Assembly: GCA_016927795.1 (NCBI GenBank)
Contig: JAFGLX010000021.1
Coordinates: 1-38,455 of the forward strand
Reading direction: 5' to 3'
Source of the DNA: Candidatus Omnitrophota bacterium
GTDB lineage: Bacteria; Omnitrophota; Gorgyraeia; JABMRN01; RBG-13-46-9
Length of the DNA stretch: 38,455 nt
Under the pieces are notes generated by a model that was given only the letters and a program-made list of their open reading frames with translations, ran no database searches and had not been told where the DNA came from. A program made the position numbers and the translations under genes. Shown here one piece after another: positions 4,860 to 29,700 of the stretch (within the stretch, counting starts at the first letter, position 1; each line of letters begins with the position of its first letter).

Positions 4860-4913
4860 TTTTAAGCGCTCCTCAATTTATTGTGAAAAAACATTAAAAA
4901 CGCGTATATCGCT

Positions 4914-7118: not shown

Positions 7119-7170
7119 ATTTTGTTTTGTTGCGGGAACCCCCGAAATAAAAAACAATTTTTACTAAAGA

Positions 7171-7320: not shown

Positions 7321-8445
7321 TTACTCCGAAAAGCCGTTTGTGCGCTCATACTCTTTTTTGTAAGCCAGTATAGACTGCGAAATAGCTTCCGCGGCCTTTT
7401 CCTTGTAAGCGCTATTATTCAAATTAGACTCTTCTCTTCTGTTGGTAAGAAAGCCGACCTCTATGAGCACGGCCGGCATCTGGGCCCTTTTAAGCACCGC
7501 GAAACCCGCTCCTTTTACCCCTCTTTTTTTTACGCAGAGGTTGTCGGAAATTATATTGCACATATAATAGGCCAGTTCCTTGGATTGCCTTCTGTTCTCG
7601 TTCATCTTCATGTCCATGAGCGTCGCTATCGTTGACAGTTTTTTATCCTGGACAAGCTCCTCCTTTTCAAATTTAAAAGACGCGTTTTCGATAGCCGCCA
7701 GTACGCGTGCGCTGTCGTCGGTGGCGTCCGAAAGATAAAATACTTCCACTCCCTTGGCGCGCGAATGCCTGGAGGCGTTGGCGTGTATGCTGACGAAGAA
7801 ATTGGCGTTTCTTTTGTTTGCGATTTCGGCCCTGTCATAAAGCGGGATAAACGTATCGTTTTCCCTTGTCATGATGACATTAATGCCCTGCTTTTCAAGA
7901 TACTTTTTTATTCTTTTTGATATATCCAGAACGACATCTTTTTCTCTGGTTCCGTATCTGCTTATAGCGCCGGGGTCTTTGCCTCCATGACCCGGGTCTA
8001 TAACGACAGTCTCTATGCGATGCTTTTTCGTGATGAAAACCGGTTTCTCTTTTAACCTCAGCACGTCTTCGGTTACGAATATGGCCGTCTTGACAGGTAT
8101 GTAAGCGGCGCCGTCTTTATATTCTATCGGATAGTCGAACTCCATGCCCCTTCCGTTTATAAGCGCGAAATTTGAGCCCGGCCTTAATACCAGACTGGTC
8201 TTCGCCACCCAAGGGGCCGTAACCTCTATTCTCTGCGAAACCAAATCCCAGTCCCAGCTTAAATTGTAGTAATCGCAGAATTTCAGGAGTGACACATACT
8301 GCACATTGTTAAAAAAAACCGTCTCGTTATAAAGCGATACATCAGGTATCTTTAACATCTCGGCGTGGTAGGCGCAACCGAAAAATAAAAGGGATGAAAA
8401 CAATAGTACTATCAGCGGCCGTGATATTTTAAAAATAAATTTCAT
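7321..8445 (-). CDS. N-acetylmuramoyl-L-alanine amidase (Amidase_3 family) with a lipoprotein-like signal and an N-terminal accessory domain
   Basis: Track ORF of 374 aa. The signal peptide ends LLFFG-C. Catalytic-domain motifs present: VVIDPGHGGKDPGA, EKDVVLDISKR, FVSIHANAS, GVEVFYLS, AVLIEVGFLTN. Confidence 0.9.
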   Translation of the reverse strand: MKFIFKISRPLIVLLFSSLLFFGCAYHAEMLKIPDVSLYNETVFFNNVQYVSLLKFCDYYNLSWDWDLVSQRIEVTAPWVAKTSLVLRPGSNFALINGRGMEFDYPIEYKDGAAYIPVKTAIFVTEDVLRLKEKPVFITKKHRIETVVIDPGHGGKDPGAISRYGTREKDVVLDISKRIKKYLEKQGINVIMTRENDTFIPLYDRAEIANKRNANFFVSIHANASRHSRAKGVEVFYLSDATDDSARVLAAIENASFKFEKEELVQDKKLSTIATLMDMKMNENRRQSKELAYYMCNIISDNLCVKKRGVKGAGFAVLKRAQMPAVLIEVGFLTNRREESNLNNSAYKEKAAEAISQSILAYKKEYERTNGFSE

Positions 8446-8656: not shown

Positions 8657-8713
8657 GCAGTTATCATCACGATGATATTTTTTTGCCCGGTAGTTTAACA
8701 CTTTAAAAAAGAT

Positions 8714-8794
8714 ATGCTTAAAAGAAATATAATATTCAAAACAATATGCGTTATCCTTGTGGTAACGTTTATTTTTGAGAACATCCTGTGGGCC
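8714..8794 (+). other. N-terminal signal peptide or signal-anchor of the giant protein
   Basis: MLKRNIIFKTICVILVVTFIFENILWA: a basic n-region followed by about 18 hydrophobic residues. Confidence 0.6.
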
Positions 8795-11700
8795 GATCCG
8801 GAGATAGGGAAGCCCGATTATTTCCGCCGTAACACGCTACAGGTCCCGTCCATGTTTATACCCCGGACTGATGAGAAAATTCTCGAGGTTACGCTTAACT
8901 ACCTTATGAGCTGTCTCGACCTTCCTGATTTTAAAATCCCTCTGGAAGAGTTTAACTACCGCCTTACTCCCACTGTGGCGGGAGTAGACCTTGAGATGGA
9001 CTTTAGCCCGCCCGATGAGGACGGGAAGAAAAAAACAGGCAAATATAGAGAAGGTGAGAATTGGATTGTACCTTGTTCCACAACTTCACGACGCGGTTGT
9101 CGCTTATATGAAGCGGTCATAGACCCCGCTGGAAATGCTTCCCTTCGAAAACCGGGTATAAAAGACAAGGCGGAAGGAGAGAAAAAGGCACCGCTCGCAG
9201 GACATATAAAAACTACCATCGCGCAGCAAAAACCGAAAGAGCTTGAATTGCCGGACAAACTTCACAGGAAATGGTTAGCCGATTTGCCGCCGGATCCAAA
9301 AATAACAGAAAAGATAGATTGCTATACCGGAATAGTCGAATATTCGCGTTACATAGATACGTTGACCAAATTTATCGGCCGTCATTTAGCGAATATCGCA
9401 GTTTTTTATATCGACTATGAAGGCAAGCGCGTTTTTAAACCGGCTTCGCTATATAATCTTTTTATTTTACTTCCGGTAATATGCGAAAATCTAACCCCTC
9501 TGGTCAATTTACCGCTAATGCTTCGCAGGGAAAAGTCAAGAAAAGAGCAGGAGACATATGTCAAAGAAATATTGGAAGCTTCGGAATCGTTTAAAAAGCA
9601 TTTTGCCCTGTTAAAAGATATGTCCGAAAAAGACTTTTACGAGCAAGCGAAGAAAGCTACTCATAGAGGTACACGGGATGACCCCATACCATGGTCTGAG
9701 AGGAAAGAGCATTTCGTAAAGCTCGTATTCGTAGAAAACGAAAAAGCTTCTTATAACCGGTTCCTTTTCAAAGAATGCATCTTACGAATGGAGGCGGCTT
9801 TCGGAGAAGCGGAAAAACACATCGCCGAGCTTAAAAAAACCACCCCCGATCCCGGGTCGGAGGAGGTTAGAGGCGATGCGGGCGGAGCACGGGTACCGGG
9901 ATGGGTTGCGACAATCAATATGTTTTTAAGATCCGGAATTTTTACGCTGGCGCTGTCAGGCAAATTTACTTGGTTTCGCAAGTTTCGGGAAAGGCTCAAC
10001 GTCTTAGCGGGATGGTTATGGCAGGAAATATCACGATTCGAAAAACAGATGCGGCTAAATAGGCTTATATACACCAATCCAAACATAGTAATCTTGACGA
10101 CAAAAATCACATATGAAGAAAGATGCGCAATAGCAGATAGCTGGTACCATCTTAAGCGCCGCTACAACGAAAAAGCTAATATTATTCTTGCCAGACCGAG
10201 AGATGTCAAAATATATAATAAAAGAATTTATATAACAGGCGGTGCCGTAAAGAGCGATGAAGAATTACCGGAGAGTTTCGGCACGTTTAAAAGCGAAAAA
10301 TTTGCAAGACCCGCCGAAGTTCATTATCTATTCAACCTGCATGATATAGCGGTAAGAGATATTGAGAATGTGGACCTGCCGCTCGAGGCGAATAGAAAGA
10401 TGGTAAACTTTCAAGATGACAAAGAAGAGCAGGTGATGCTGGCTGGAAAAATAGGTATTCCCACAAAAAAGATCATCGGAACATTTCTTGTGTCAGACTT
10501 TGATATTTTAGGAGATAAAATAGAAAAAGTATTTGAAGAAGGGCCGGAAAGTTTGAGAAACAGAGTCAAGGCGGGCGAAAAATTTTATCTCCAGCCAAGT
10601 GACCAATCGCGAAGAAGGATTTCCTGCATTATAAGCAGTGAAGGAGATATTGAAACTGCAAAAAATATTATACTCGGAGCCCTTACGAGCGAGAGTGTCA
10701 AGAAAATGCTGGTGATGGAATATATAACTTCCATACGCCCTAGGGAGGAACTTGCAGAACGCGTTCAAGGACAACAAGATAGAGAACCCCAAGAACTTAT
10801 AAATGACGTACGCATACTGGTAACGCTAAACGACCGGACAGGAAAGCTTGAAATAGGGGCAGCAAAGGTTAATGTCGCAAGGGAGATAAGGAGACAACAA
10901 GAACTTATTCCTGACAGAATGAAAGCGGAGGTAATGACGGCGGAACTCGAAGGGCAGCTTTCCTTAGACAATTTTTTAGCTTATATGCCGCTGGCAGGGC
11001 GTAAAAAAACCTTGTTGAAAGACAGGATAATAGAAGCGGCCATAGAGTATGCCAGGGAAGCGTTTGCAGAGGGAAAGAGGTTTGATACACTTGCGGTGGA
11101 TTTTATTATTTCAGACAAGTTAGATGGTGACGGCGTGCCCGAAGTTTATTTTATCGAATGCGCGACGCATTTCAGCGGCGAACGCCAATATAATTCAATT
11201 ACCCAATACGGATTCAGGGAGAGGCATTTCGCTGTTGCGTGCTCAAGGGCGAAAGCATACCGGAATACTTTGCACCATAAAAGAGCGGACGACGGAAAAT
11301 CTGCCTACCAAGCGGAGCAGCAAGGTAATCCGAAAACCCTGCCAAATACTTTCATAAGATCATCGCATAAGGTTATATCTGGTGGTAAAACAGGTACTTT
11401 ATACACGGCGGACAGGGAGAAAAAGCGTGTTCCGGCCGAAACAAAATTTCCCGTCTGGATAAATACTGAAACTAAAGAAGTAAAGATAGGAGAAAAACCC
11501 GAAGGCGAAAATTGGTGCCCATACACCAGCCTTTTACAGATTTCCAGCCCGCCGGCAAAAAAAGAAAAAGACGCAAACGAGTTTTCTGTTAAATTCGCGG
11601 CGTTTTACGGCCCGCATGGACCCGTTATGCCTGTCATAGACGATAAGGATTGCCTTGAAGGAGGCAAATATTACAGGCAAGCCTTACTCGGCATTAAGAA

Positions 11701-14700
11701 GAAAAAAGGCTTTTTCAAGGGAATCATTCCTATTTTTAAAAAATTAATCAAAGAAGAGGGGTTGTCAAAAGAAAATATAGAGATAACGACCTCGCTATTC
11801 AGCCTGAATCCTATATATACCGCACAAATTTTATATGCGAAAAATGGGAAAAAAATCATAGTGATAAACAAGCCCTTTGTGAGCATGATAGCCTTCCAGC
11901 TAAAATACGGGTATGGGAAAATAACGCTTTCCGATAAAAGGTTAATAGAAGAATCCGGAACCGCAAAGAAAAAGCCGCGTTTTATAACATCAGACATTGT
12001 AACAAGTGAAGTCTATTCTATAGCGCTACATGAGATAAGAGCGCATATCCGATTAAACGAGCCGGAAGTAAAGGCCCAATACAGAAGGGGCAAAAATTAC
12101 AGAAATATAAATATCGCGGCAATAGCGTACTACTGGTCCCTGGCGGCCGAAGGATATGATGAATTGCGTATTAAAAGTTTCTTTGAGGACAACCCACATC
12201 TTGTAGCAAGCGCACTTTCCGCATACTACATAAACGAAATAGACAATATAGAAAAGCAGCGTAAGACGCACGACATCCCGAGGCCTATCCAATACGTTAC
12301 GGTAACTTCAGAGGAATGGATGGCATGGCGAGAGAAGTTTCCGCGGTACGCTGCCGGGTTAACTTCATACGAAGAAATGGCACAAGAGGCCAGCTATATT
12401 CTCAGTAATGAGGCAACGCCAAATGGCGAGACTGGAAGAATAGAGAAAACCTCCGCACCGGAAGCTGCTCACCAGGCAAGAATACCTTATCAAGTTCCGC
12501 GTTCGAAAAGGAAATTTGAGGAAGATATCAAAATAATTCCGCTTGGTGGCGTTGGCGGTTCGGGAGGGAGCTCTTTTTATGTGAAAGCCGGTAAAACCCG
12601 ATGGCTTTTTGACGCGGGACAGGGTGTCGGCGTAAATAGCACGTTTATGCCGCGCTTTGACCTCATAGATGACGGATTGGACTTTATCATAATAACCCAC
12701 GCGCACATGGACCATATAGGATGCTTACCGGAAGCGGTCGCATATTTCGGTGATATCCCAATCTATACCAGCAAAATTACAAAAACAAAAATCAGGCTTA
12801 TGCTGAATGATAGGCATTCGGTTAATGAACGCAGGATAAATCGAAAAATCCTGCCGGGAATCGAGAGTAAAAATACAGAACACGACATATGGTTAGTCGG
12901 CAAAAATATCCGGACAGTCAAGTCGAGTAAATTTTATACCTTAAACGGTGATATAGAAGACGTAAAAATTAAATTTCTGTCTGCCGGACATTTGCTCGGA
13001 GCAAATTCCGTGGAAGTCCATACGCCTTACGGCAACATACTCTACACCGGTGATTTTTCCGCTGCAAAAACACGTACGACAAAAGGCATAGAATCGCCTG
13101 AAACCGCACCGGATATTCTCATCAGCGAATCGACATATGGTGGCAGGCTTAGCAGTAGTTCGCGGGAAGGGCTTGAATATGAGCTGGCAAGCGCTGTTAG
13201 TCGGATTATCAGCGGTGAAGGCACGGTTCTTATTCCGTGTTTCGCTTTGGGCCGCTCTTCAGAGGTTACATTGGCCCTATATGACGCCCGCGAAAAAGGC
13301 CTTGTCCCCAAGGATATGCCGATTTACTTAGACGGGTTGGCAGGAACAATGTTTAGGCTTGATATGGAATCCTGGCATTTGATGCCTGATTTACCTCGGT
13401 TAAAATCAAAGAATATTTTTAGCCCTGAAAATGGAATATTCCGCGTAAGGACAGATGAAGAACGCAGGAAAATAATGAATGAACCATGCTGTATTATCGC
13501 GACATCCGGCATGATGATGGAAGGAACGCTTTCGGCAGATATTTATGCCCCCCACATTTTATCCAGTACTCGTAACGCGTTAATTTTAGTGGGCTATCAG
13601 GCGGAAGGAACGCCCGGACGTAAAATTTCGGAATTGAAAAGAGAGGCAACGATTATTTTAGGCGATACACGCATACCCGTCAAAGCAGAAGTCTTGAGCG
13701 TGCCCCTCTCCGGCCATGCCGGCCACGGCCAGATACTTAATTTTATAAAAGGGATAAACGCAAAGCGTGTTTTATTAGTTCACGGAGATGAGAGTGCCAG
13801 AAAGGCCTTACTGAAAGACTTATCTTTTTCCGGCGGCTCAATCGAAACACCTCAAGTGGGAGAGGAAATTGTTTTAGTGCCGGAAAATAAAACCCGCCGG
13901 AAGAAAGAATTCCGGCAAACAATCGCGTTTCGGCTTGAACGGATAAGAACTAAGCGCAAACCCGCGCAACCATTTCCGCGAAGAGTAAGGCTTACCAAAG
14001 AGGGGCAAGAGGCGGAGAAGAGAATAAGATTTGTCGCGGAATTGGTCGAGAACAAAGACGGATTTTTCAAATTTGGAGACACAGTAACCCATGAACATAG
14101 AGAGTGGGCGGAGCGTATTATAACTTATCTGGAGACCAAAGGGCTTCATATCGGTATGATACGGTATTTCTTCCAGGATTTATTTAAGAACTGGAAAGCG
14201 GCGGGATTACCCGTAATTTATCTTTACGGCAGAAATCCTGCGGAACTTTGGGATCTGCGCGAAAAATCGGCGGATGAGTTACGTACTGTAGCAAACATGT
14301 GGCGCAAAAAAGAGAATAAAGCGAGAATGCTCTTTAAGTGCGCCTTCTTCCCGCTGTGGCTTTTTTGGGTTAGCGGTAAGGTTTTTTTACGGGCAGCCAT
14401 TATAATTCTCAAGCCCCAAAGCCGGATGGATTCGACAAAATTATCCGGCCATAAAGACAGTAATAAAAAGAGAGAAACGTTACCATTAGGGTCCAAAGAC
14501 TTGACCGAAAGGATACGCGTAGTTATGGACTCCATAGAAGAAACAAGGCGTAGAGGTGAAAGACTTGCGGCTATAGCCGAAGAAGCGAAAAGAGATTCCA
14601 GTATCTGGGAAAGGTTAAAACATAGAGGGTTTGTCGAAATCGCGCTTATTACCGTATTAGTGATTGTCGCGGGAGCGCTTATATACTTTGTCAGTGCCGA

Positions 14701-17700
14701 TGTCGAAAATATAAGTAACGGCATGTTAGAGTATTTTACCTCAATAGGAGCAAATGGCAATTTGCCGAAGATTGGCATGGCATTACTCGCATATTTAGTT
14801 TTACTCGGCTCATTTACAGCCAATCTCGGTGATTCGCAAGGAGAGCCAGTAGATGACGAAAAAATAATCGATACCGCTAAATCGTCCTGGTCATATCAGC
14901 TAAAGAGCGCGAACCGGCCCGATTGTCTTACGGTAGACAATGAAGCGGCTATAAGAACGCGGTTAGAAAAAAGCGTATCTCACGAAACCAAAAAAATAGT
15001 ATATGATGCCTTTAAACAATTTCCTAACGATATCTATTGCCTGCCAAGGAAAATGCTTGGCAGGAGAAATGCCTATTTCAGCATGGATTACGGTTTCCTC
15101 TGTTTTGCGGATGAAACGTTCGCCGATATAGGCGCAGACGGAATAATCGGAATCCTGGGGGGAGCGACAAGCCTTTTTAACGAAGGCAGATACGAGGCTA
15201 TTAACGCGTTTTGTGATGAGAAAATAGCGGCTTATTCTGAAGAAAGGAAAGCCAAAGATACCGTTCCTGCCGTAGAAAAACCTGTTACGAAAAAGAAACT
15301 CACCGTGACTGCCCGGATGCCAGAAACGCCTCTTGAAGATTCCCCCGCGCAAAGAATGAAGCCCAAAAAGGTTACCAAACCCGCCGAAACACCCGTGATT
15401 TCGCAAACTGTAACTTCAGAAGCGACACCATCAAAAACACACCCTGCATATGCGCAGCCTGGCGCTGAAAAATCATCTATTCTCCCGGCCATCGTAGATG
15501 TAGGAGGCGGGGAAGACGGTACCATAACCGCGGCTGTACTAAAGATGCGCCTTGCTCATGACGTAGAACGTTTGCTAAAAGGCCGGGGGTGCAGAAATCA
15601 GTTCAGCGTTCGATATGGCCGTTTGACTAACACGGACATATCGGTAGAAGCCGACGTAAGCGATTTAAAAGAGCCTAAATTAAACCTCGCCATTATTTAT
15701 GCATGGGATGAATTAAGTAAGGATGCTCTTTTTAAAATAGCGGTTCTGCCTGACCCACGTACAATAGAGCCGTCCGCGGTGAGGTACAAGGCCGATTTTA
15801 CAAAATATGATGTAAAAACACGCCTTGATGAGGTTAATCCTGAAGTAAATAACCTTTTACCGCTATTTAGCGAAAAGGTAGACGTCTGGAGCAGTAAAAC
15901 AAACAATGAGAAATGGGAATGGTTGGCGGATATAGTTGCGTCATGCCGGAAAATACTGGAGGTACGGCACGGTAAAAGGGAAGATGTCGAGAAGCACTTT
16001 GAAAATTTAAAGCATGAAAACCCTGAACAGGCGGAGGAAATAGACCGGGCAAAAACCTTTATAACCGGCATAATAAAAAAGGAATATGAAGTAACTTTTA
16101 AAATACAGGAAATCATAGAGCGCATAATAGGTTTTGCGGTAAAAGATGAAGTACCGGGCAAATGGGTCAAACAAGCCTTTAATGAGATTATTCCTTTAAC
16201 AGAAAAATGGCCAAGACTCAATCTCGCTTTTAAATCCTATATAAAAATGATATTTTCGGATAGCAAGCCTATGTCTGTCCAAAATGTGGCGAACATGGCG
16301 AACGATCTAAGTAAAATATTGCGTAATGAGAGGATACGTGAAATACCGAATTGCGGGCTTTCGGGGGAGGCCCTGGAGAAATGCTATTATGACGCGGAAC
16401 GCCTGGCCCTTTTGGACATTATCGAGGGTTCGCCAGATGCGCAAACCAGCTTGCATAGAAACGGGGTTCTCGGTATTCTTAAAGAATTTTCCGCTTCTGA
16501 CCGCGTTCCGTCTTACCGCCTTCTTAAGTCTGCCGTTGACGTATGTTACGGCACTATAGACCTTGTAACTAACGAAGTGTTTACCGAACTTATCAGGGAA
16601 AATTCACATGTAGAACGAGAGGATATAAAGGAACTTGATATACCTCTGGGAGGAATGGGTATTCTAATTTTGAAAAAAGACCATTCTTCCGGAGAAGATA
16701 AATATAAAATAAAACGTTATATAGAAGGCGCAGGCAACCTTATTTATCCGACAATAATAAGCGCAAGTTACCAACCTTACTGTTTTAAAGGGGAAGAATG
16801 GTATGATAAAGGTGATGCAGCCGTATTTTTATATCCTTCTTGTGGGGAGTGCCCGAACATGGAACAAATGACGATGTTTATGGAGGATTATTTCTATTTC
16901 TGCTTGAGGACCTCGACCTTCCCCGATGTCATGATGGGGGCCGTAGATTCAAATGGAAACGTATTCGCCAGGCGTCTGAACATATCGCCGGGAGACATAG
17001 AAGACTGGTATAAGGTAACGCGCTACGTTACTATAGGTTGCGGGCTTTTTAACACAAGATTGAGAAGACCCCTTGAGATGGACCTTGCCGTAAAAGCATG
17101 CAACGACATTGAGGCTTTGCCCGTAGAAGAAGAAAGAGATAGAACGGGGGTAAGCGTAACATCCGGAGGACGCGCTTTCTCCTGGGAGATGAAAAAGAGT
17201 AAGTTTAGAAGTATCGTAACCCGCATCGTCGGCAGGATCAAAGGGTTTACTAAAATTTTAGAAAACGGTTTTAGAGCTTACGGAATTAGCAGGCGAAATA
17301 TAGAATCCCATCTTAGGGCAATACAAAGGCGCATTCCGGATGGATGGAAAATATTAAGCAATTTCGAAATGTACACGCCGGACAGAGCGCCAGATATGGA
17401 CCTCTTGGATGTGCAATTACCGCTTATCTTACATAAGCTTATTATAGCAACCGGCGAGGAAACAGCGCTTTATGCGTACAATAACAGGACATTTTTCGAG
17501 CCGGTTTTTCTGGAGAAGCTTTCCGCAAAAGATGAGGCGGGATGCAGAGAACGCCGGCAAGCGCAAAAGAAAAAAGAACGAAGGGAGACCGCTCTTACGT
17601 TGCAAGGTATACGGAAAACGGATATACATAACCCCGAAGAAGTAATCCTCGCCCTTAATAAGTGTTCCGACATGCTCGCAAACGGGATGGAACCCAAATT

Positions 17701-20700
17701 CAGCGAAGAACTTTGTAAAATACGCGCGCAACTTGCAGAAAAGTTTTTCTCAGTACTGCTTAAGGAAATTGATGACCTTTTTGAAGAATTTAAAAGCGGA
17801 AGGAACTTTGACACAGGCTCAATATACGGTTTACTGAATAGATGCAGAACTGCGCCGGAAATAGCCGTCTATAATGAAGGTGCAGAATCAGATTTACTGC
17901 ATCTGGTAGATATAGCTACGAAAAAATTAAGTATTATCGATATATATGCCGGAAGTAAAAACTATGCGGAGCATCTTCTGGAAATCGAGGAAATAAGCCC
18001 CGATGTTATAAATGAGGCTACAGGTTTTATACAAGAAGCCGATAGTTGTGTAGAAGGGCTCGATGAGGGAGAAGAGGCTCCGGTTTTAGACAGGTTTGCC
18101 GAACTTAAGAACGATTTTAGGGAAAAACTTAAATATTTGATCAGACACGACATGGAGAAGGTTTACGCGGACGGAAGATTGGCTGACACCGTCCAACTCG
18201 AAGACCTATCCAGGCTTCTATCGCGCCTTTCGCTTATGTGCGAGTTGTTTAAAAACATAAGCGAAAATTCAAGAATAGAGGAATATCGCCGTTTCGAGAA
18301 AATGCGGTTGATAACGCAAGCTGTTATGGAAAGAGAGGCCGCGTATAAGGCGTTAGAGGCGCAAGCGCCCGCAAAAATGTCTGAAGAATTGATGTTAAAA
18401 AGAGGCGAACAATTTTCGGTTTATCACCGCTATACGGGTAGAAGGGTGGACATAGTCTTCAACGGAATAATAAGAGAAACTATCCAAACAGGAGACTACA
18501 AAGGTAAAGAAATCCGGCTTGCCCATTTTACTGTTAAACCTCCTTATGGCTTTATCCCGGTAAGCGGCAACGAGCTGGCATATTCACAGCGCAAACGCGA
18601 AAACTGGCGTTATCCCGGATTGGAAAAGTCTCTTGCGGAACACAAAAAGGCCATAGATACAATGTATTCCTTTTTAACAGAACAAGAAATTAAATGTTCC
18701 GAGCGCCCGGGTAAGTCAGGTGTAAATAACCAGTTTTGGCTATTTGTCCCGAATATATTTGAAGAAATAATAAAAGACAAAAGTGTTGTTGCAGGAGAAA
18801 CAGATTCAGAGGGTTCGATACCATTCAGTAGAGTAGCCAGGGATGCCGGTTTATCGATAGAAATCAGTTTATTGCGCGAATCAAGCATAGGGGGTGAGGA
18901 AGTATATATAAATATATCTGATAAGTTAGACCAGTATGACTTCGAAGCGCTTGAGGTAAGCGCTCCAGTAGCAAGGACAAAACCGCGAGGAAAACCCGCG
19001 TCTAGGATTTCAACAGTAACCGGCGTATCAGGGGTATCCGAGAAAAAAAGCTTACATATTTCGGATGGAATACCGCAAATGGAAACCCCTTCCGATACCC
19101 CGAAGATGCGTTTTACAGACGACGACGAGAGGGAAGCAAGAGATTTCCAGCAGGGCAGAGGACGCTTCTTTAAGACACCGAAAATAAGAACTATACATAG
19201 GGCCGGAAAAAGAGCCGCAAAAAGAGATGATGCGCAACCCGCAAAGAAGGGGAGAAAAACCGGCGAAATCCAAGAATTACAACCATTTATTAACGACGTA
19301 CAAAGAATACTAACAGATGCGGGATATGAAAATGGGCTTAACGGACTTAGCCGTGTGGAAGAAAGAGAGCTTTTTGAAAAGCATACCGGAGAATCCGTGA
19401 ATCTTCTTGTCTACTCGCAACTTTTGTGGATTATAAAAATCGCGTGGTACTATTGCGAAAAGAATTATGGCGTACATATAATGGATTTAGTTCATAGCGG
19501 TATGGACACTGTAAGAAATATTTTGACCAATAAACATCCGTCTGCATCAAGGTTTGACCCGACAAAAGGCAAACTCAGCACTTTTACTACACAATTCATC
19601 CACTGGGGAATGATGAGTTTCCTCGAAAACGAAAACCGCCTCCCCAATATCGACGACTTTGCGTTTTTTGGAACAGGCAGGGATATTTCTTCTCTCGAAG
19701 CGTCACCGCTTCACAAGGAGAGGGTTAAGCAACTTTTTCGTTACCTTAATGACCGGGAAGAGGAGATAATAAAGTTATTTTTTGGGCTGAACGGCAACCC
19801 TTCATTGTCCACCGAGGAGATCAGCGTTCTTTACAGACATTGTATTTCTCCGGTTACTGTTGAGAAGAAAGTGAGTACAATTGTAACAAAACTCTGCCTT
19901 TTGGGAACAAGCGGCGAAAATTCTCTCAAAATACTTAACGAGGATGAGAAAAAACACCTTTTTTCGCTTAAGACAATCCGCATGGTAGAGGATTTCGTAA
20001 GTGACCCGGACAAAAGAGCGACTTTAGATCCACGCGATTGCGAGATTCTCGAATTGCATTATGGCCTTTCGGGTGAAAAGCCAATGGGCTTTCGGGAAAT
20101 GGGAGGGCGTTTTCATCTTAGCAAGACCCGCCCGTCGCAGTTGTGCGCAAGGGCAATGGCTAAAATAAGAGAAAGTTACGAATCTGCGTGGGAAAATATA
20201 AGTCGTTCAACGGGCATAACGGAAGAAGGCATGCGTGAGGCTTACGGCAGGGCAAAGGAAAAAATCCAGCCTAAAGACAGTCTTTTGAGGGCTGAGCGCG
20301 CGCTTCCTGCGTTGGACGAATTCGTATCGGAATTATCCAAAACGGCCCGTTATATCACTGAAAATATAGCCGAGCTTCTTATAGCGCACTATAATTTAAG
20401 GCATCCGGTCGACACTCTGGATTTCCACCAATATTCTATGCCGAAAAAGATAACCCTTGAAGGTGACGAGGAGCTTAACTTTGAAAATGTCGTGAATTTT
20501 ATAGAAAACAAGGAAGGATTGACGAGCTGGGAGGATATAGCCGGATATTTCAACGCTTCCGGCGAAAGGGTGACCGTCAGGCGATTAAAAAAGAACTTTT
20601 ACGCTAAATTAAAGGAATACGCCAATTCCCAGCGCGAAAAACACAGGCTGGGCGTCCCGGACGGCGTTATTCCCCTCGTCTATGACAGAAAATACACGGA

Positions 20701-23700
20701 ACGGTTAAAAAAGGTCATTAAAGCTATTGAGGGAGAAACCGCGAAGGAAAAAAGCTACCGGCTGGGATTAGCCTCGAACATAGAAATATACAAAAGGTTC
20801 CCACATTATAAATCACGGCAGGCTTTAAGAAGATTATTCAGGGCTGTAAAAAGAAAACAATTCCTTTCTGACCTGAACTCAAACCGCAAATTTTTAAACC
20901 GTCTCGGAACGCCGAGGCGCATTCTTCTTGATATCGTGGAATACCCGGCACTCTATATAAGAGATGCCGTTAATAGCACAGTAAGTGACGCTGGATTAAC
21001 GGCGCATGCAATAACCGATGCCGCCAGCGCGAAATACCGCGGTTTGCGCAAAATGCTTAATAAGATTAATCTTGCACAGATAAATTACAACCTTTTTATA
21101 TTACAGGATGAAACGATGTATTCATCCGATGATACCGGAGAAAGAAAATACCGCGACCAGATTTTAAGGGTTCTTGAAGAGTTGGGAGGGCTTGGAAGTC
21201 CCGAGGAAATAGCGCACATTTTGCGGAAGTATTACTATATTGGAGCAAAAGGGCAAACCGTGGCCGAACACGCCAGAAAAATAGACTGGAAAAAACTTAA
21301 TGAAGATAGAGAATCCAGGCGGATTTTCCCGCTTCGGGTTATTTACAAAAAAGGTGATTTGAAAAGCGCTAATGGCGTACCTTGGGTATCAAAAATAAAA
21401 GAGGCATTTCTTGAAAAAACCGGCAGCCACCGCAATTTTTCACCTTTTGAAAAAATAACATTGCCCATGTTGTATAAACGCATAACCCGTTTAGTTCGCG
21501 GTAACGGCAATGGAAATGGGGCAAAGGAAGTTATCGAAAATTACTTTAGGCAGGCTGCCGGACTTACATTAAGAATCTCTACGAATCAAGAAATGAAAGT
21601 GGATAGGGATAGCTTTTTCCGATATGGCGTTGAGAGAGCGCTCAATTTGACTTCCGCGCAGCTTGCCTTAAACGGTGAGGACGGCTTTATCAAGAAATTT
21701 GAGCATAACTTAAGAAGAGTGGCAATCGGAGAGTTTCCTCTTGCAAGCTCTTCTTACGCGTACTGGTTGGAGCCGCGGATAGAAAAGGCCCGGGAACCCA
21801 TTCCGGACGCGGAAACTGTAGAGGTTCAGCCTTCAGGTGTACGTTTTACTACTGATAAAGAAGAAGAAGCACGGGCTTTTCAACAAGGCAGGGCGCGCTT
21901 CTTTAAGACACCGCGGAAAGAGATGTCCAAGAAGCCATTGTTCCAACATGTTATACCATTTGAGCGAGGCACGACACCGGAGGATATACTAAACGGAATA
22001 GATTTGGATAAAATAGTCGGCGATATGCTCAAATTTATATCATCCCATACGGAGATAGCTTATGATATAAAAGAAAAGATTACAGACCCTCAATCGGATC
22101 TTGACTGGTTAATGCGGGAAACCGTCGAAAACGCGCTTGATTCGATAGCGTTAAGGTTCAAGCGTGATAGAAGTTTTTCCTGTGGCATAGTAGAAATAAA
22201 GGCATATTGTGCGGATAGGACTACCCTTATTATCGAAATTGTAGACAACGGAGAAGGCTCAATAAAAAAGAGCCAGAACCCCTGGAAAAAAAGAAATGCT
22301 AAATCTCTTGGACTTGCCGGCCGTTTTAAAGGGGGAATGCGTCTTATTTATAAAATTGCGAAAGACTTAAGTGGCAAAGCAGAGCTTGTGAACCGAAATG
22401 GTACCAAAGGTGCTATACTCAGAGTTAAATTAACCTCCCGCAGGCCGAAGATAGAAGAAGCGAAAAAACCCGTTCCGGATGCGGGATCCGAATATCACCT
22501 GCCGTCATTCGGGCCATTAATGATATTTTTCGCCTTTTGGTTTAATTACGAAAAGCTCAAAAGATTAATCCTATCGCTGCAAGGCATTTTGAAAAAAATA
22601 GCCGTAAAATGCCATCCGAGTACAGGCCCACCTCAAGTAGTATCCGCTTTTAGCAGGGCATGGAAGGCTATAGTCGAGAGCAAGGCCTGGAATATATTTT
22701 TGGGTTCATCGGCTATTTTTACTTTAGGTGCCCCAATTTTCTGGTGGGCGCTTAAATACGGAATGCAGAAAGATGCCTCTCTCGTTACGGTTATCGCCAG
22801 CTTCCAGACAGTGGCGACGTATTTTATGGCCACCGAACTTGTAAAAATCGAAGAACGCGCTCTAAAAAAGTTTTTTGCCGTTTTACTCGTTACACTAGGC
22901 GTCCTTTCATTTTCACTCGCCAAGCTTTTTGAGGCAAATTTCGCAATAAATTCTGTCATAGGAATAGTTTTACTCTCATCGGCGTGTATTTTTATATTTC
23001 CAATGCAGTATACTTTCGGCGCCAGAGCCACGCAGGCGCACAACGTGAATCCCAACCTTTTGACAGCGTTAGGATTTAGTGTGGGGGCAATCACATCATC
23101 AATCATCCAGCTTATGATAGAGCCCGCTTTGGCCCTTAATCCTGTGGGACTATTTGAACATCTGTCGGCGCCTATTTTCACACTAAACGTTTTCTGTTTC
23201 TTATATGTACTGAAAGAGCTGATACAGTGGCTTCCGTATAATTATTTTCTAAAAAAACTCGGGGCGTCCGTGACGCAGGCCTCGTTTGCGACAGTGCCTT
23301 TCATAACCTTCGCTATAACGCTTTTCCTTGCGCCTTTTAATATTACACCGGGTTTGGTGGCTATTTTTATAACGTCGATTATGATGGTTGTAGGGGGTAA
23401 TATATGGCTTGTCCGCCACAGTAACCAAAACAATACCGGCGCGAAAAATAAATCGAACCTACTTTTTATATGTACTCTTCTATTTATAGCGGTTATCGCC
23501 AGGGCAACAGGGCCTGTTTTTGGCATAAAACTTGTTACAGGACCGGAGGACTTCTCTTTCATCCAGGCAATGTTCTCCGTTAATTTACTTTCGGCGGCTT
23601 TTTCATGGATAGTAGTTGCGATGTCGCCCGGACGAAAAACAAAGCCTAAATATTCCGCGCTGAAAACGTTTGTATTACGGTACATGCTGTTTAGGGGAAC

Positions 23701-26700
23701 GAAAATTAGATGGCCGGACAATAAATACAACCGTTCATTGAGGGCAAGAATCGAGCATTTCCGGCAGGACTTAGATAAAACAAACGCCTGCCGTAACGGA
23801 AAGATTATTTTGAGCGACAATCCGGATAATCTTATAACACGTTTGAGTTTCACATCGTTTAAGAACAGTAAAAAACCCACAAAGTTTGTCGGGGCAGTTA
23901 TTACGGCGGTAAACGATAAAACGGCAACCATAAAAATATACGGTTACAATGTGCATAACACAGCCGAAATTTTCAGGTCGAAAACCAAACCGGTAAAACC
24001 GGTATGCGAGATTGAGCTGGCGACCGTTGCGCCGCTCGATGACGGTGACAATCCCGCGGAGCTTGAGGAACTAATGAGGGATTACCAAAACTACTTTTTC
24101 GGGGAAATTTTCTGGATAGAACCCGTTAGAGATAAAATTAACGATAACGTAAAAGAAGAATTTCCGTCCACTACGCCACAAAACCGCCTACCCGCAGTAA
24201 GTGCGGAGGATAAGGTGGCCAAGCTTTTACCCAAACCGGCAAATCCAGTCCAGTCGGTAGGAAAGGAATGGTGGCTTGAGGACAGTCACGGTGGTATACT
24301 CTGTCCGATTTCAGCCATGAGAAGAAGAAGCGGGCAGGGGATAGGCGATTTAAGATGCGTAGATTTATTTCTGGAGCTAATCAATAAAAAGAAATTCGAT
24401 TTTGCCATGTTTCTCCCGACATCTCTTACAATGCCCGATGACCCAAGCCCGTATAACAGTATAAGCGTCTTCGCGAATAACGCCATAGCGCATATTCCGC
24501 TTGATGAATTAATCGGAAAAGATGTTTATGAGTCGTATCTGGATCTTTTTGTCGCAAAAGAGTGGCATTGGTTAATGGAGCATAACAAAATACGTCTTAT
24601 GCAACACTTAAACCCGGCCTTGATAGAAGAGATGAAAGGCATGATGGTTGTTGCGGACAATGAGTCCGCGCGGAATAATCTAAGGGCTTATCTTAAATCC
24701 ACTATAAAAGACGCTAAGAAAGCCGCCAGAGTAGACTATCCACTAATATACAGGTTCAATAATTTTGTACTTAGACAGGAATTTGAAAGGGTCTTTGAGA
24801 GACTGGCAAGCGGCTCTGTTGAGGCGTTTAACGTTTATGTCAATAAAAACGCGTACTGGCTTAAAGACTATAGCCTGTTCCACGCGCTACTCGATTATCA
24901 TAAAGGTTTTCCCTGGTGGACGTGGGAAAAGCCGTATCGCAACCCGGCTTCCGGCAATGCCGATTATAAAAAGATTATCGCGGAATTTTCCGGAAAACAT
25001 AAAAAAGAAATACTTTTTTATCAATACCTTCAGTGGCTTTATTATGAAAGATGGCAGAAAGTCATCCGGCACGCCAGGAACCTGAATAAAGAACTAATAG
25101 GGGACATGCCTATATACCCTTCCTGCAACAGCGCGGAGGTATGGGCCAATCAGGATTTATTCGATTTTTCCAAGACTGCGGGTGCTCCACCGGATATGTT
25201 TAACGACGCGGGACAAAACTGGGGTTTTTATCCTTATCGATGGTTTGATAGAAAGAAAAAAGTGCTCGATTTCTGGAAGAAGCGCATAAGGTACATGGCG
25301 GAATTTTATGACGCTGTCAGGGTCGACCACATTCTCGGTCTTTGTTCGGAGTGGCTTGTCGATTTTGGCAAGGCCGCCTCCGAAGGTAAATTTTATCCGG
25401 AAGACGATTTAGAAGCGGCAAAGCTGGGACGTGAAGTTCTGACAGAACTCGCAAAAACAGCCGCTGACACAAATACACTTTTGATAGGAGAAGATTTAGG
25501 AGTAAGGCCGCCCGAGACGAGGAAGATGCTTGACGAATTGCCATTAGAGCTTAATAACCTATTTTTGTATAACATAATAGGTTGGCGCGAAAAACATATG
25601 GCCAGAAGGCCGCATGTTATGTTTACGGATACCACGCATGACACGCCCCCTGTGTTTTCACTGCGATATAAAATAATGAATGAGGACGAGAGAAGGCAAA
25701 CGGCTGAATTTCTTCAAGCTTATAATGTGGAAATAGCTAGCGGGGACACGGAGGAATCGGTTGAGGCGAAAGTTATGGAAGCGATGCGCAATACAGGCTT
25801 TTATTGTTACACTATCCAGTCTTTATTAAATTATAAAGGTGATTCGCAGTTTAACGAACCCGGTACGGTAGGGCCGCATAACTGGACGTGGATGATGCCG
25901 GAGGAGCTTGAGACGGTTTTGCAGAAAGTAGAATCTACTCCGGAGATGATATTGCCTGAAACCGGCTCCGCAGGTAGCGTTAAACCTGCCCCCGATTACG
26001 GCATATCCATAGTGCCGGGGAAACGCGGCCGCGGGTTGCGTGTTTATGATTCTATCGTTTCAATAACGGTCGCGTATCTTGCATCAGCACTCTGGTTTTC
26101 TATATGCGCATTCGTGGCTGTCATGTTAGCGATAAGCATATCGGGACCGGTAGACCTTTATGAATTTATTTTTAAAAACCTTTTTGCTTTAAATTCACTC
26201 CATTCATGGCTGCTTGTAAGTTTATGCGGTACATCATTTTTATATGTCGGGAGACTTGTCGAAGACATGATATTCGCAAAATTAAATTTCGCTAAAGATG
26301 CCAATCTGTATTTAACCGACCAAAAAGGACAGTCTTTTCATTACAGGGGCCCTTCTTACATAAGTCACGGCATCGCTAAAGATGAACGCCATGTAATAAT
26401 GATAGGTAAATCCATTTTTAGAAAGTTGTATTATTTCCTGAACGACGCCGTTAATGAGATTTCCGCAATGGAGAATATCAAATTTTTGCTTATTATTTCC
26501 TGCAACCCCTCATCCTCTTATGGTGGCCCCGCCGAAATACCTTATATCTATCCGAAATCTGTCGCTATGCAGCGCCCTCTTAGCTTTCTGGGAGGAGTAA
26601 ACCCCTTAAAGGGTAGAAAACGCTATCGTGCGCAGAGTTGGTACGTTGTTTTTCCGGGCGGAGAGGAAGTTGAATTGGGCGAGGCGATAAAGCGTGGGTT

Positions 26701-29700
26701 GCTTGGGGAAACAACCGTGGCAAAGGCGCCGTCCAGCTCCGAGACCACAGAAGTAAAAAACCCGGCCCCGCCTATTGCAATAATCGCCATCGCGGCGCTC
26801 CCTGTTATCGGCAGATTATCCGTTAAATTATGGAAATGGGTAAAACGCGCTACAGGAATATTCAAGAAAACGGCCAAAATGACCAGGGCCGAGAGATATG
26901 TATTTAGACTCAAAAATGAGGCCCAGTATTTTTATGACAGCGCCGTAATGTCATTTGCGAACTCCTCCTACCTCGACGCGATAACTTCTTTTGAGAAAAG
27001 CGCCGATATTTATATAGAGTTACATGGTCTTGTTACGGACAACACTGTTTTTAGTGAAAAATTGCGCGCGATAGCCAAAACACTCAAAGAAATTTTAGAT
27101 TACATAAGTAACGAAGGGGATTATGAAGAGTGCCTGGGGGCGCTGCAAAAACTTTCGGGTATGCAGAAAAGGACGGGTAAATTATCCAATCTGCTTTACT
27201 TAGTCAAAACAATCGCGGGAATGAACGAGAATATAATATCAGCACGCATACAAAGAAGGCTTATGAGTAAAGACGTAAGTTGGAAAGTAAGATTTGACGA
27301 GAAAAATCTTAAAATAGGCGACGCGGTTCTGGATAGGCGTTTTCGTATGTTGCTTTTATACAAAGGCCGCTTTCGCCGAAAGTTAACAGGCATGGCATCA
27401 AGGAAAAGGGCGCACCAGCTAGATTCACCGACGGGACATCAGAGTTTATCTATAAACAGCTTTTCGCAAATAGGGTTACTAAAATTTTTGTTACTTAGAC
27501 CACCCGCATCCTTCTCCCGGGAGTCGGAGAAGGAAGAACCGTCCGCAAAAATATCGAGTTATGTAATTAAGCTTATTGACGAAAATACGGCGGATGCCAG
27601 AATTGTGTTGTGCACCCTTCTTGAGCATAAAGATATAAGCGATACCGTAAAGGGGGTAATCATAACATATGCGACCGGTCCGGAACATGAGCCGATAAGG
27701 GCCCTTCTTCCATCCGTGCGCCACGCCGATAATAACGAAGACGCTCCCGATGACTTCCCCGGCACCAAACGTTACTTTATGACACCGCGAAAAAAACCGA
27801 AGCGGCCATCCAGAAAACCGCCTACCACCGCCAACCCCGGGTTGGAGGTGGTTAGACCGCTAGCCTGGCCGCAGGCACCTGTGGAAGTGTTAACGCAGAC
27901 GGATACAGGTATCTTTCCAAACGCATTGTGGCATGGGAGCGAAGTAGAATTTAATGTTATAAGAAAAGCATTGGGCTTATCCATAAAGGAGTATAGAGCC
28001 GCCCTTAATGCTGGAAAACCTAAACCGCTATCGCCGGTGACAATGGATGTTTATTTGCATCGCAGAAAAAATCCGGTTCCATATTTACACCTTGAATGGG
28101 CACGCAAGCTGTATGCTCAGAACGCCCCGCGCCGGCTTGAGGTATTGCTTAAAAGGCGCAATTTAACCGTCGAACAATTTACAGCCGAGCTTGGCGAAAG
28201 CGGTATTACTGTATACGTGTACGAGATAAAAGAGATGCTGGAAAATAAAAGGCCTGTCCCATATGAAATTTTGATAACCGCAACCAAGAACGACAGTGAA
28301 AAGTCAGGCCCTTTATTTGACAGGATATACCGGTGCTCAAAGCTGGTAGGAATAGAATTCAGTGAGAAGGTAAGCCCCGGTTCGCCTTTACCGAACTATT
28401 ACATGTATGAGATGAGAAGTGGTAAGCGGCCGATTCCCGATGAAATTATGCTTAATGCCCTGAAGCTAAACGTATCTTTGCTGGGCGAAGGTATTACTCA
28501 ATCTTCGCAGTTGCAATCCGAATCGGACGATGTAATACCGCCGGCAGTACAGGGACTGGCGGAGCAGGAAGATACGGCCACGATAATAAAGCAAGATGGT
28601 TTGCCGATTAAGAGCGTATCCGCCGCGGCAAAAAGCGGCGAGTTGCCGGTTGAGAGCGAAAAAAGGCCTATAAAATTTGAATTTCTCGAGGTAGGCCAGA
28701 TAATTACGCTTGGCGGTAGGGACTATAAAATTCTACGCCGATACTTTGCCCATGATAACCATAAATGGATAAAATTAGTGGAGGACATAAAGACGCACGA
28801 AATTTTTATTATCAAAGGTTTCAACAAAGACCATATAGATACCATAAACGCGCTGAGAAATTTACAACACCCCTGCCATGCTAAAATAATTAAAGTGTTC
28901 GAGCCGGAAGGTGCCTTTATGATGCCCGACTATGGAGCAGAAACATTTATCGACCATATATGCCAAAGCGCGGATGAAGGTTTGCCTTTGAAAGAGTGGC
29001 TTTCGGCGAGAGTAAACGAGGTAATATGGCTTTTGGAGGCCATTAAAGAAATGTCCGAAATCGGCAGAGACCATGGCGATCTATTGGATAAAGAACACCA
29101 TATTTTATATTCTGACGGCTTGCCGCACATCGTAGATTATCATATCTCTTCCTTATCCCGAGACCACTCCCGCGATCTTCACGGCATTATTTTGCAGGCA
29201 GAAGAGATAGTACGTACGGCAGAAGCAGCCTATGGATCGGGCGTTCCAGGGACGGGTATTATAGAAGAACTTGGCCGAATATTGGACGATATGAACGGCA
29301 GTTTTGAGCAGACTTTTACAAGAAAAAATGCCGATGAATTTATAAATATTCTGGCACAGTATCTCGATTCTATCGGTATGAAACGCATATCGGCCCAATC
29401 CGTGCTGACGCAGCCCGATTTACCCCCGCATTCGGAAATAGTTACGACTGTTTCTGAACCGATAACGCGGGTTGTCATAATTCCTGCCGGCGGCGTGGAA
29501 TTGCTCAAGCCGCACCAGCCCCCGCTTGAAAGATATAGTATAGAAGACGATGAAAATCTCGGCGAGTGGAGCGGCGGATTACCGGAAGGGGTAGACAAAA
29601 AAGGGTCAGGTAGCAAGCAGGAGGAGTTGGACAAGCCGCTTGGCATTGAACTTGTACCCGGCGTATTTGTACTTGAAGACGCAGTAAATACCGCGCTTGC

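Follow-up and report, generated by a model that had tools for sequence, protein, structure and literature searches.

A 38,455-nucleotide stretch of contig JAFGLX010000021.1 (the window, that is, the whole of the DNA analysed) very probably carries one genuine Candidatus Omnitrophota gene of at least 29.7 kb, whose product belongs to a class of giant multi-enzyme membrane proteins that has been described before. The explanation that we favour, with moderate confidence, combines this identity with the construction of the protein from modules and with a mechanism in which the chain would be stapled to the cytoplasmic membrane; the last part taken by itself, a membrane-stapled cytoplasmic enzyme array, is an even call. 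The window is Omnitrophota chromosome, since the 16 best GTDB species-genome matches of the fumarase alpha subunit encoded near the giant gene (54-70% identity) come almost all from metagenome-assembled genomes of Candidatus Omnitrophota.

The stop-free frame runs from 8699 to 38455 on the plus strand, and its first start codon behind the stop at 8696-8698 is the ATG at 8714; the use of this start is backed by the N-terminus kept in relatives. The resulting open reading frame (ORF), 8714-38455, has at least 29,742 nucleotides and at least 9,914 amino acids, and is still open at the 3' end of the window, so that the C-terminal part lies beyond it; amino acid n begins at nucleotide 8714+3(n-1). 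The initial annotation had described a single polypeptide between 10395 and 29150. It was right about the single frame, but that interval covers only amino acids 561-6812 of the larger ORF. Over the whole stretch none of the 9,914 codons is a stop, against 253-717 stops in each of the other five frames; from the base composition a rate of 0.061 per codon is expected (approximately one per 16 codons, or 600 in all), which gives a log10 P of -272. The GC content at the three codon positions and the codon usage are even along the ORF, and its relative synonymous codon usage (RSCU) correlates with that of six upstream housekeeping genes (r = 0.68-0.73). Given the lack of stops, the uniform host-like codon usage and the conservation of the N-terminus in relatives, the giant ORF is one genuine gene, a real coding sequence rather than a chance ORF. 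A self-comparison of the chain by blastp revealed no internal duplication. In the closest Omnitrophota genomes, one of them a complete chromosome of 1.43 Mb, the fumarase cluster has no giant ORF at its side, hence the gene is not syntenically conserved.

The domain content of the chain was searched with Pfam, twice in offset segments of 1,000 residues and then in segments of 300-560 residues at E <= 10, as well as with NCBIfam and with phmmer against all PDB sequences. The order that emerges is leader, module X with an ATP-grasp fold, module Y, beta-CASP ribonuclease, sigma-70-like module, GHKL-like domain, a block of ten transmembrane (TM) helices, GH77 amylomaltase, module W and further sequence. 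About 27% of the chain can be assigned to a recognisable or conserved module and about 73% is without a detectable family; there are five or six distinct enzyme domain families and no dominating repeat. The earlier view that enzymes which normally stand alone are fused here into one membrane-threaded chain is borne out by the continuous frame, the confirmed modules and the TM helices. Of the eight modules named in the initial annotation, four are confirmed (beta-CASP, GH77, sigma-70-like and ATP-grasp), GHKL has weak support, and the DMT, XRE and kinase assignments are unsupported. The modules are the following:

8714-9283, plus strand: N-terminal leader module, amino acids 1-190, conserved as the N-terminus of relatives.
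9968-11350, plus strand: module X, a predicted ATP-grasp-fold domain (AlphaFold2 and Foldseek), amino acids ~419-879.
11498-12430, plus strand: module Y, a conserved domain with at least nine relatives, amino acids ~929-1239, with HEIRAH (HExxxH) at 1106-1111.
12488-13870, plus strand: complete metallo-beta-lactamase (MBL)/beta-CASP/RMMBL ribonuclease domain, amino acids 1259-1719, from Pfam and PDB alignments.
19430-20188, plus strand: sigma-70-like module, with regions 2-4 at amino acids 3573-3727 and a second region-4 helix-turn-helix (HTH) at 3769-3825, from Pfam and NCBIfam.
22097-22429, plus strand: GHKL (HATPase_c)-like ATPase domain, amino acids 4462-4572, from a weak profile match and motifs.
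24305-25912, plus strand: complete GH77 4-alpha-glucanotransferase (amylomaltase), amino acids 5198-5733, from Pfam and PDB alignments.
30326-31228, plus strand: module W, dark, amino acids 7205-7505, matched by blastp (E 7e-18, 24% identity) to amino acids 2464-2761 of the second gene of metagenome locus L034.

The two enzymes with fully intact motifs had both been recognised in the initial annotation. The beta-CASP module matches Beta-Casp (E 1e-15), RMMBL (1e-11) and Lactamase_B (6e-11) of Pfam with 58.7, 45 and 43 bits, each score exceeding its cut-off, and aligns end to end with the archaeal aCPSF1, the human CPSF73 and the Thermus protein TTHA0252 (PDB 2xr1, E 1e-46). All seven motifs are present: D1300 (motif 1), HAHMDH at residue 1329 (motif 2), H1426 (motif 3), D1447 (motif 4), E1472 (motif A), H1668 (motif B) and H1690 (motif C). 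A histidine at motif C marks the RNA-acting branch of the family; the module shares it with CPSF73, aCPSF1 (FttA) and TTHA0252, together with the same full MBL, beta-CASP and RMMBL architecture. Unlike aCPSF1, it lacks KH domains and is embedded at amino acids 1259-1719 of a giant membrane protein. The GH77 module matches its Pfam profile at positions 2-461 of 465 (E 9e-86, 289 bits versus a cut-off of 25), and the triad D5538, E5593 and D5643 aligns with that of the Thermus amylomaltase (PDB E 5e-41). Compared with MalQ (Thermus, 1CWY/2OWC), the match is near full length and the Asp/Glu/Asp triad is kept; however, there are approximately 140 divergent N-terminal residues and 70 residues of insertions, and, unlike the soluble MalQ, the module sits between the ten-helix block and a TM pair. 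Given that all catalytic residues are kept, both modules are predicted to be active.

The sigma-70-like assignment likewise holds. Sigma70_r4 of Pfam is matched above its cut-off (E 4e-8, 33.2 bits versus 24.1) in two tandem stretches, and TIGR02937 spans regions 2 to 4 at amino acids 3573-3727 (E 2.7e-9, profile positions 14-161 of 165), although its 36.9 bits fall under the cut-off of 42.9. The RpoH and RpoS models match the region 2 part with E values of 2e-7 to 2e-6, and Pfam Sigma70_r2 gave no match at E <= 5. In comparison with sigma-70 and extracytoplasmic function (ECF) sigma factors, regions 2 to 4 are recognisable but the whole-family score stays below the cut-off and region 4 is doubled; being tethered in a chain of 9,914 residues or more, the module would have to be released before it could serve as a free sigma factor. 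The GHKL identity of amino acids 4462-4572 is weakly supported: coverage of the HATPase_c profile is nearly full (positions 5-106 of 111), and the putative N-box ETVENALD (residue 4469) and G1 box VDNGEG (DNGEG at residue 4511) are correctly spaced, but the score is below the cut-off (E 0.008, 17 bits versus 26.4) and the G2 box is degenerate. A HisKA H-box was not found with this domain.

On the other hand, no sequence-profile matches were obtained for amino acids 25-1258 in Pfam, NCBIfam or PDB, and a profile of module X run against PDB gave as its only match a spurious designed repeat. The ATP-grasp-like call made earlier for this region was not an obvious one, and it is borne out by AlphaFold2 and Foldseek only. 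The AlphaFold2 model of module X, made from an 11-sequence alignment, has a predicted local distance difference test score (pLDDT) of 81.7 and a predicted template modelling score (pTM) of 0.80. All of the top 50 Foldseek matches in PDB are D-Ala:D-Ala ligase, VanA/VanG or RimK, with E values down to 9e-13, a probability of 1.00 and a template modelling score on the target of ~0.6. At the level of the predicted structure the ATP-grasp fold is confirmed. Module X shares with Ddl, VanA/VanG and RimK the three-domain fold, the metal-site Asp and Glu and the invariant Lys; it differs from them in an identity of only 9-14%, in an extra long N-terminal helix and in an Ala in place of Asn. The stretch LAVDFIIS (D796) is followed by YFIE-C-A (E815, A817) where the canonical D...E-x-N is expected, and the Asn position is Ala in all 11 family members; this correspondence of metal-site residues was taken from the position of the motifs and involved no structural superposition. 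Since the Asn of E-x-N is lost across the whole family, the ATP dependence of module X is unproven and an ATP-dependent ligase activity is not assured. Its relatives, at least ten, are found in proteins of 479 to 6,567 residues. Module X also occurs in the short proteins P0012 (488 residues) and P0017 (695 residues), where one or five TM helices belonging to these proteins stand ahead of it, so that attachment to the membrane may be a trait of the X family itself and not just of the giant chains.

Module Y has ~300 residues and its relatives are all inside other long chains; in P0004, for instance, it lies at residue 3752, behind HATPase_c, CheB and PCMT. The HExxxH motif is kept in seven of the nine family members. 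The AlphaFold2 model has a pLDDT of 65; PDB yielded no match by profile and nothing significant by Foldseek (best E 0.26). A zincin-type protease was considered and rejected, the match of best probability (0.54) being the EcxA toxin subunit over 116 columns with an E value of 0.47. A role as a metal-dependent hydrolase is possible, unsupported. The partner of module W is a gene of at least 3,301 residues (22953-32855 of its locus) that stands directly after P0003, a leader-bearing gene of 4,284 residues, which indicates that large genes of the leader family can stand in tandem. Two other assignments of the initial annotation found no backing. For the XRE-like HTHs, no profile was matched at E <= 10 over amino acids 5734-6900 or elsewhere in the chain, and phmmer with the HTH_3 domains of relatives gave E values of 0.8 or more; for the kinase-like fold, Pfam and NCBIfam gave no profile match and the HRDxxxxN motif is missing. 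Farther along the chain, at amino acids ~7810-7900 (~32140-32420 of the window), two alike tandem segments rich in helix, TPENIEKITKGTLKAKTIKSALRAYGI and TPADIAKIIQGYLTEEQIISVIRRHKL, were noticed by eye; judged from their sequences they may be small HTH-like repeats.

The N-terminal leader begins with a signal-peptide-like helix at amino acids 6-24 (8729-8785), followed by the invariant W26-A27-[ND]-P29-E30 (8783-8803) and then by a conserved domain of ~130 residues with NWIVPC at 116-121; it belongs to no Pfam or NCBIfam family. Its identity is 37-47% with the N-termini of eight further proteins, which mostly have 1,000-5,000 residues (P0002, P0003, P0023, P0025-27, P0030 and P0035), and of 15 metagenome loci recovered by a pattern scan of JGI metagenomes (L037-L051). 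At 14 of these 15 loci the ORF headed by the leader runs off the end of the contig or locus, after reaching at least 3,482, 3,467, 2,359 and 1,328 residues in four of them. What stands behind the leader varies: a sugar transferase (Bac_transf) with methyltransferases, methyltransferases with CheB, RidA, an XRE-type HTH (HTH_3), Sigma70_r2 with HAD and a LOG-like domain, a DnaJ J-domain, or QPRTase. Conservation at the predicted cleavage site of the leader exceeds what an ordinary signal peptide needs.

The chain has no close homologue. With amino acids 60-1258 as the query, 1.84 billion representative proteins were searched exhaustively by HMMER; 37 proteins were returned, and the matches split this region into separate conserved modules. 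When the chain was compared by blastp with all 39 retrieved proteins, each was found to share exactly one module with it. Word-indexed searches were insensitive: with the first half of the chain against 5.8 billion clustered proteins they gave three weak matches only, and they returned no match for the N-terminal 300 residues, for which true relatives exist, or for the module X alignment. Five modules were compared, namely the leader, X, Y, the beta-CASP ribonuclease and W, and each recurs singly in other long chains of Omnitrophota type, at other positions and with other partners. It follows that the chain was put together by shuffling modules behind an N-terminal leader that is conserved and specific to the family. 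It had been proposed that homologues with the modules as separate adjacent genes would point to a fusion artefact; instead the relatives hold them in other long chains and in other orders, and the frame is continuous here.

The membrane topology was modelled from Kyte-Doolittle scans, the biological hydrophobicity scale of Hessa and the positive-inside rule. A TopPred-style enumeration with 15 certain and 6 marginal helices in both orientations was used, and the 14 best of 128 models were compared. The chain has approximately 23 strong TM helices in addition to its signal-like N-terminus, arranged as follows:

14354-14827, plus strand: TM cluster B, with strong helices at amino acids 1976-1994 and 2020-2038 and a marginal one, with K and R inside, at 1881-1899 (Kyte-Doolittle, Hessa).
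22694-23623, plus strand: ten-helix TM block, amino acids 4661-4970, both ends predicted to be cytoplasmic (hydropathy, topology models).
26078-26830, plus strand: TM pair, amino acids 5789-5807 and 6021-6039, enclosing a loop of 213 residues predicted outside (hydropathy, topology models).
31295-31771, plus strand: TM pair, amino acids 7528-7546 and 7668-7686 (hydropathy).
35885-36313, plus strand: four-helix TM cluster, amino acids 9058-9200 (hydropathy).
37991-38119, plus strand: TM pair, amino acids 9760-9802 (hydropathy).

The TM clusters that had been placed at 14328-14830, 22508-23640, 26050-26250 and 26762-26848 correspond to the helices at amino acids 1881-2038, 4661-4970, 5789-5849 and 6021-6039, respectively. 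With the leader and two doubtful segments set aside, the groups of strong helices number 2, 8 (10 if two weaker helices are counted), 2, 2, 4 and 2. The block described earlier as an 11-helix transporter of the drug/metabolite transporter (DMT) type is real as a ten-helix block, and its charges agree with the positive-inside rule, both ends being inside, but no support was found for the DMT family. EamA or other transporter profiles gave no match to it at E <= 10 in Pfam or E <= 1 in NCBIfam, and a 5+5 symmetry of the DMT type was rejected (half-against-half Smith-Waterman z = 0.9); with DMT (EamA) transporters it has in common about ten helices and cytoplasmic ends, a likeness in helix count only.

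In the initial annotation, an N-terminal signal peptide or anchor would have left the first 1,870 residues or so outside the cytoplasm. The part that stands is the first ~1,850 residues, whose side is in question; the sigma-70-like, GHKL-like and GH77 modules, however, are cytoplasmic in all 14 top models, with the loop 5808-6020 outside. Their cytoplasmic side is robust within these models. For the ATP-grasp and beta-CASP modules the same side is probable but unproven: the best model that has them inside scores 27 and needs one marginal helix, at residue 246 or 398, which would return the chain to the inside behind an exported leader domain. The predicted sidedness is ambiguous only for the first ~1,850 residues, and turns on the marginal helices at 246, 398 and 1881. 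It had also been argued that the nuclease and ATP-grasp modules would be starved of ATP and cellular RNA outside; nevertheless, beta-CASP enzymes need Zn and not ATP, and the ATP-grasp-like module is one for which a need of ATP is unproven. The apparent topology paradox is real, but it is narrower than first stated and is shared by the whole leader family. The three ways out that had been suggested (an unusual orientation of the anchor, action on external host or prey substrates, and a processed polyprotein) are hypotheses already debated in the literature on Omnitrophota giants.

In the membrane-stapled array, the even-numbered TM groups would act as hairpins or bundles that fix the chain to the cytoplasmic membrane with no change of side, and the large soluble segments, tethered to the membrane as an array of enzymes, would lie at its cytoplasmic face. 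Only short loops (amino acids 1995-2019, 5808-6020 and 7547-7667), and possibly the leader domain, would be exposed outside. Even helix groups are the pattern expected of anchors that leave large domains untranslocated. The sibling chains point in the same direction. In at least four of those headed by the leader, the stretch from it to the first cofactor-dependent domain has either paired helices or none; this domain is a SAM (S-adenosylmethionine) methyltransferase in P0002, a J-domain in L045, QPRTase in P0026 and sigma region 2 in L046. If the leader is read as an export signal, these obligately cytoplasmic modules would sit outside; such an export is implausible, which argues that the soluble modules stay inside.

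Several points weigh against this arrangement, and most of them are also the grounds for a reading in which the chain is exported and directed at prey. The leader resembles a classical cleavable Sec signal, with a basic n-region and an h-region of 12-14 residues, and would as such export what follows it; ahead of [ND]PE, position -3 is small or aliphatic and position -1 is Ala, with the invariant WA[ND]PE at the predicted cleavage site, and its h-region lacks the hydrophobicity that a stable anchor needs (dG +2 to +6 on the Hessa scale). No strong TM helix lies between residues 25 and 1881, and the next robust one is at 1976. The model with the ATP-grasp module, module Y and the beta-CASP module outside scores 24, just three charges worse than the best one, and needs the helix 1881-1899. 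Nielsen and Lui 2026 (bioRxiv 10.64898/2026.06.07.730766) report that DeepTMHMM puts the multi-enzyme content of giants with a signal peptide as well as TM helices outside. In addition, no pathway joins the ribonuclease, sigma-like, GHKL and amylomaltase modules, and a cooperation among them is not indicated.

According to the export reading, the first ~1,850 residues would be translocated by a Sec-type leader and held at the surface by TM cluster B, there to act on host or prey material; alternatively they would act within a prey cell, which offers ATP and RNA. The epibiotic or predatory way of life that has been proposed for Omnitrophota would agree with this. The beta-CASP module, whose motifs are all intact, needs only metal ions, and a divergent gene for a peptidoglycan amidase directly adjoins the giant gene. 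The literature favours extracellular roles for giants with a signal peptide as well as TM helices (Seymour 2023, PMC10066038; West-Roberts 2023, bioRxiv 10.1101/2023.11.21.568195; Nielsen and Lui 2026), and peptides of the giant protein of V. archaeovorus are reported to be up 3-fold in attached cells. Against this, the J-domain, QPRTase, sigma-70 region 2 and SAM-methyltransferase of the siblings would be outside too, which is implausible in the periplasm, and the remaining chain, with the sigma-like, GHKL-like and GH77 modules, is robustly cytoplasmic in the topology models. The 8.7 kb upstream contain no type II secretion system (T2SS), pilus or Tad genes, and Pfam scans of the chain detected no adhesin, dockerin, lectin or beta-helix domains. 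On balance we consider export unlikely, even if it is the strongest competitor of the membrane-stapled array.

A different possibility, orthogonal to sidedness, is that the chain is a precursor from which self-cleavage or a partner protease releases separate enzymes and membrane pieces, which would then work on their own. The modules are autonomous, as exemplified by module X in the 488-residue P0012 with its own N-terminal helix, and cleavage of giants by C39 or S8 peptidase domains was raised by West-Roberts 2023. Nevertheless, the 9,914 residues within the window contain no C39, S8 or other recognisable peptidase. The HExxxH of module Y, kept in most members, could be a metalloprotease-like site, but the module is without a structural match to any protease at the Foldseek E value given above, and no recurring junction motif exists between the annotated modules. 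The remaining candidate for a processing signal is an element of 26 residues that occurs three times between dissimilar segments, with a degenerate copy elsewhere:

22505-22567, plus strand: degenerate copy (GP-MMI motif) at residue 4598, ahead of the ten-helix TM block.
32486-32563, plus strand: copy 1 at residue 7925, GPGPMMIALFAIPFF-x-R-x-W-R-[RW].
35657-35734, plus strand: copy 2 at residue 8982, GPGPMMIALFAIPFF-x-R-x-W-R-[RW].
36818-36895, plus strand: copy 3 at residue 9369, GPGPMMIALFAIPFF-x-R-x-W-R-[RW].

It consists of a Gly/Pro motif, a hydrophobic core of 13 residues that is too short to cross a bilayer and an Arg/Trp cluster, a layout that resembles, as far as the sequence goes, a sorting signal or an interfacial anchor. 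A core of 33 nucleotides is identical in the three copies at the DNA level except for one synonymous change, while the flanks diverge and the surroundings are unrelated. It gave no match to NCBIfam (sorting-signal) models at E <= 10, has no copy in relatives and was unconfirmed in the JGI metagenomes. The GPGPMMIALFAIPFF element was rejected as a family-wide processing signal, as it matches no known signal and is missing from all relatives. Processing of the chain into separate products is accordingly rather improbable.

A bolder idea is that the WA[ND]PE leader marks a dedicated route by which strings of cofactor-dependent enzymes of cytoplasmic type, such as the ATP-grasp ligase, the beta-CASP ribonuclease, SAM methyltransferases, J-domains and sigma-like modules, leave the Omnitrophota cell and enter the cytoplasm of a host or prey cell to which it is attached, where they would find ATP, SAM and RNA. 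We regard it as a long shot, but if it were true the giants would be injected, membrane-anchored effector arrays that reprogram or dismantle the victim, and the family-wide topology paradox would be the signature of trans-kingdom effector delivery and not an error of prediction. Finally, that the long frame arose by mis-assembly, or is a degenerate ORF or one open by chance, with the modules really being separate genes, is scarcely credible: the protein collections searched hold no identical or near-identical counterpart and the nearest Omnitrophota genomes are without a giant ORF at the syntenic site, but the frame is free of the ~600 stops expected, its GC at third codon positions and its RSCU are uniform and like those of host genes, the catalytic motifs of two enzymes are intact, and relatives hold the same modules in other long continuous ORFs, nearly all of the leader-headed metagenomic ones running off their contigs.

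The 8.7 kb upstream of the giant gene encode an Amidase_3 amidase, MurI, both subunits of a class I fumarase, RNase PH, Ham1/RdgB, an AsmA-like protein and a PilZ-domain protein. Positions for five genes of this stretch are:

119-769, minus strand: PilZ-domain protein, at the left end of the window.
750-1553, minus strand: coiled-coil protein, at the left end of the window.
1838-3544, plus strand: AsmA-like protein, a weak match (E 4e-5).
6327-7157, minus strand: glutamate racemase (MurI), next after the amidase.
7321-8445, minus strand: N-acetylmuramoyl-L-alanine amidase (Amidase_3 and Cu_amine_oxidN1), divergent, 268 bp from the start of the giant gene.

The closest neighbours are therefore peptidoglycan-related, unlike the secretion and pilus genes reported beside the largest giants; in these 8.7 kb no T2SS, type IV pilus, Tad or glycoside hydrolase gene was found to flank the giant gene. 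The window contains no Rfam families, and a promoter scan upstream of the start of the giant gene gave a number of sites no higher than in shuffled sequence.

The giant proteins of Omnitrophota are among the largest known, and the present one offers some practical advantages. Its beta-CASP ribonuclease and GH77 amylomaltase, with their active sites intact, are assayable and usable as built-in topology reporters, and the conserved leader defines a family of long chains that can be collected and compared. The conflict of a cytoplasmic enzyme behind an export signal is systematic across this family and is not the quirk of one gene. Its resolution would decide between two views of these proteins, as membrane-stapled cytoplasmic scaffolds of enzymes or as exported, possibly prey-injected, arrays of effectors.

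Seymour 2023 reported Omnitrophota ORFs that exceed 20 kb, hold numerous TM helices and have few domains annotated; the ORF described here passes that length. In West-Roberts 2023 all full-length giants have many TM regions, and some of the predicted localisations are called 'highly unlikely'. Nielsen and Lui 2026 define a 'multi-enzyme metabolic cluster' class, 94% of which has TM helices or a signal peptide and in which HATPase_c and sugar-metabolism modules are common; their length criterion of at least 10,000 residues is not reached within the window, where the chain has at least 9,914 residues and is still open. The V. archaeovorus protein of 39,678 residues is an example of this multi-enzyme or Archaeovorin-type class (Seymour 2023; West-Roberts 2023; Nielsen and Lui 2026). 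The present protein differs from most, although not all, Omnitrophota giants in having no SecA_DEAD, C39 or S8 domain in the part within the window, and from those described in that its 8.7 kb of upstream DNA lack T2SS and pilus genes. The main text of West-Roberts 2023 and that of Nielsen and Lui 2026 make no mention of beta-CASP, GH77, sigma-70 or ATP-grasp; likewise, the module set, the WA[ND]PE leader family, modules X, Y and W and the family-wide topology conflict are not found in the available text of these papers. On the other hand, the protein shares with the Omnitrophota giants the host, a single ORF of more than 20 kb, mostly unannotated and poorly conserved sequence, a signal-like N-terminus, approximately one TM helix per 400 residues, many non-repeated enzyme domains, and the same questions of sidedness and cleavage. 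A putative HATPase_c module and alpha-glucan metabolism are also common ground: as far as the recurrent modules given by Nielsen and Lui 2026 go, the GH77 module does fit the alpha-glucan and sugar-metabolism content of giants, and the GHKL-like module their signalling content. The class as such is already published, and what is new, judged against the available text of those accounts, is this member, the ATP-grasp fold predicted for an unannotated family, and the dark modules Y and W.

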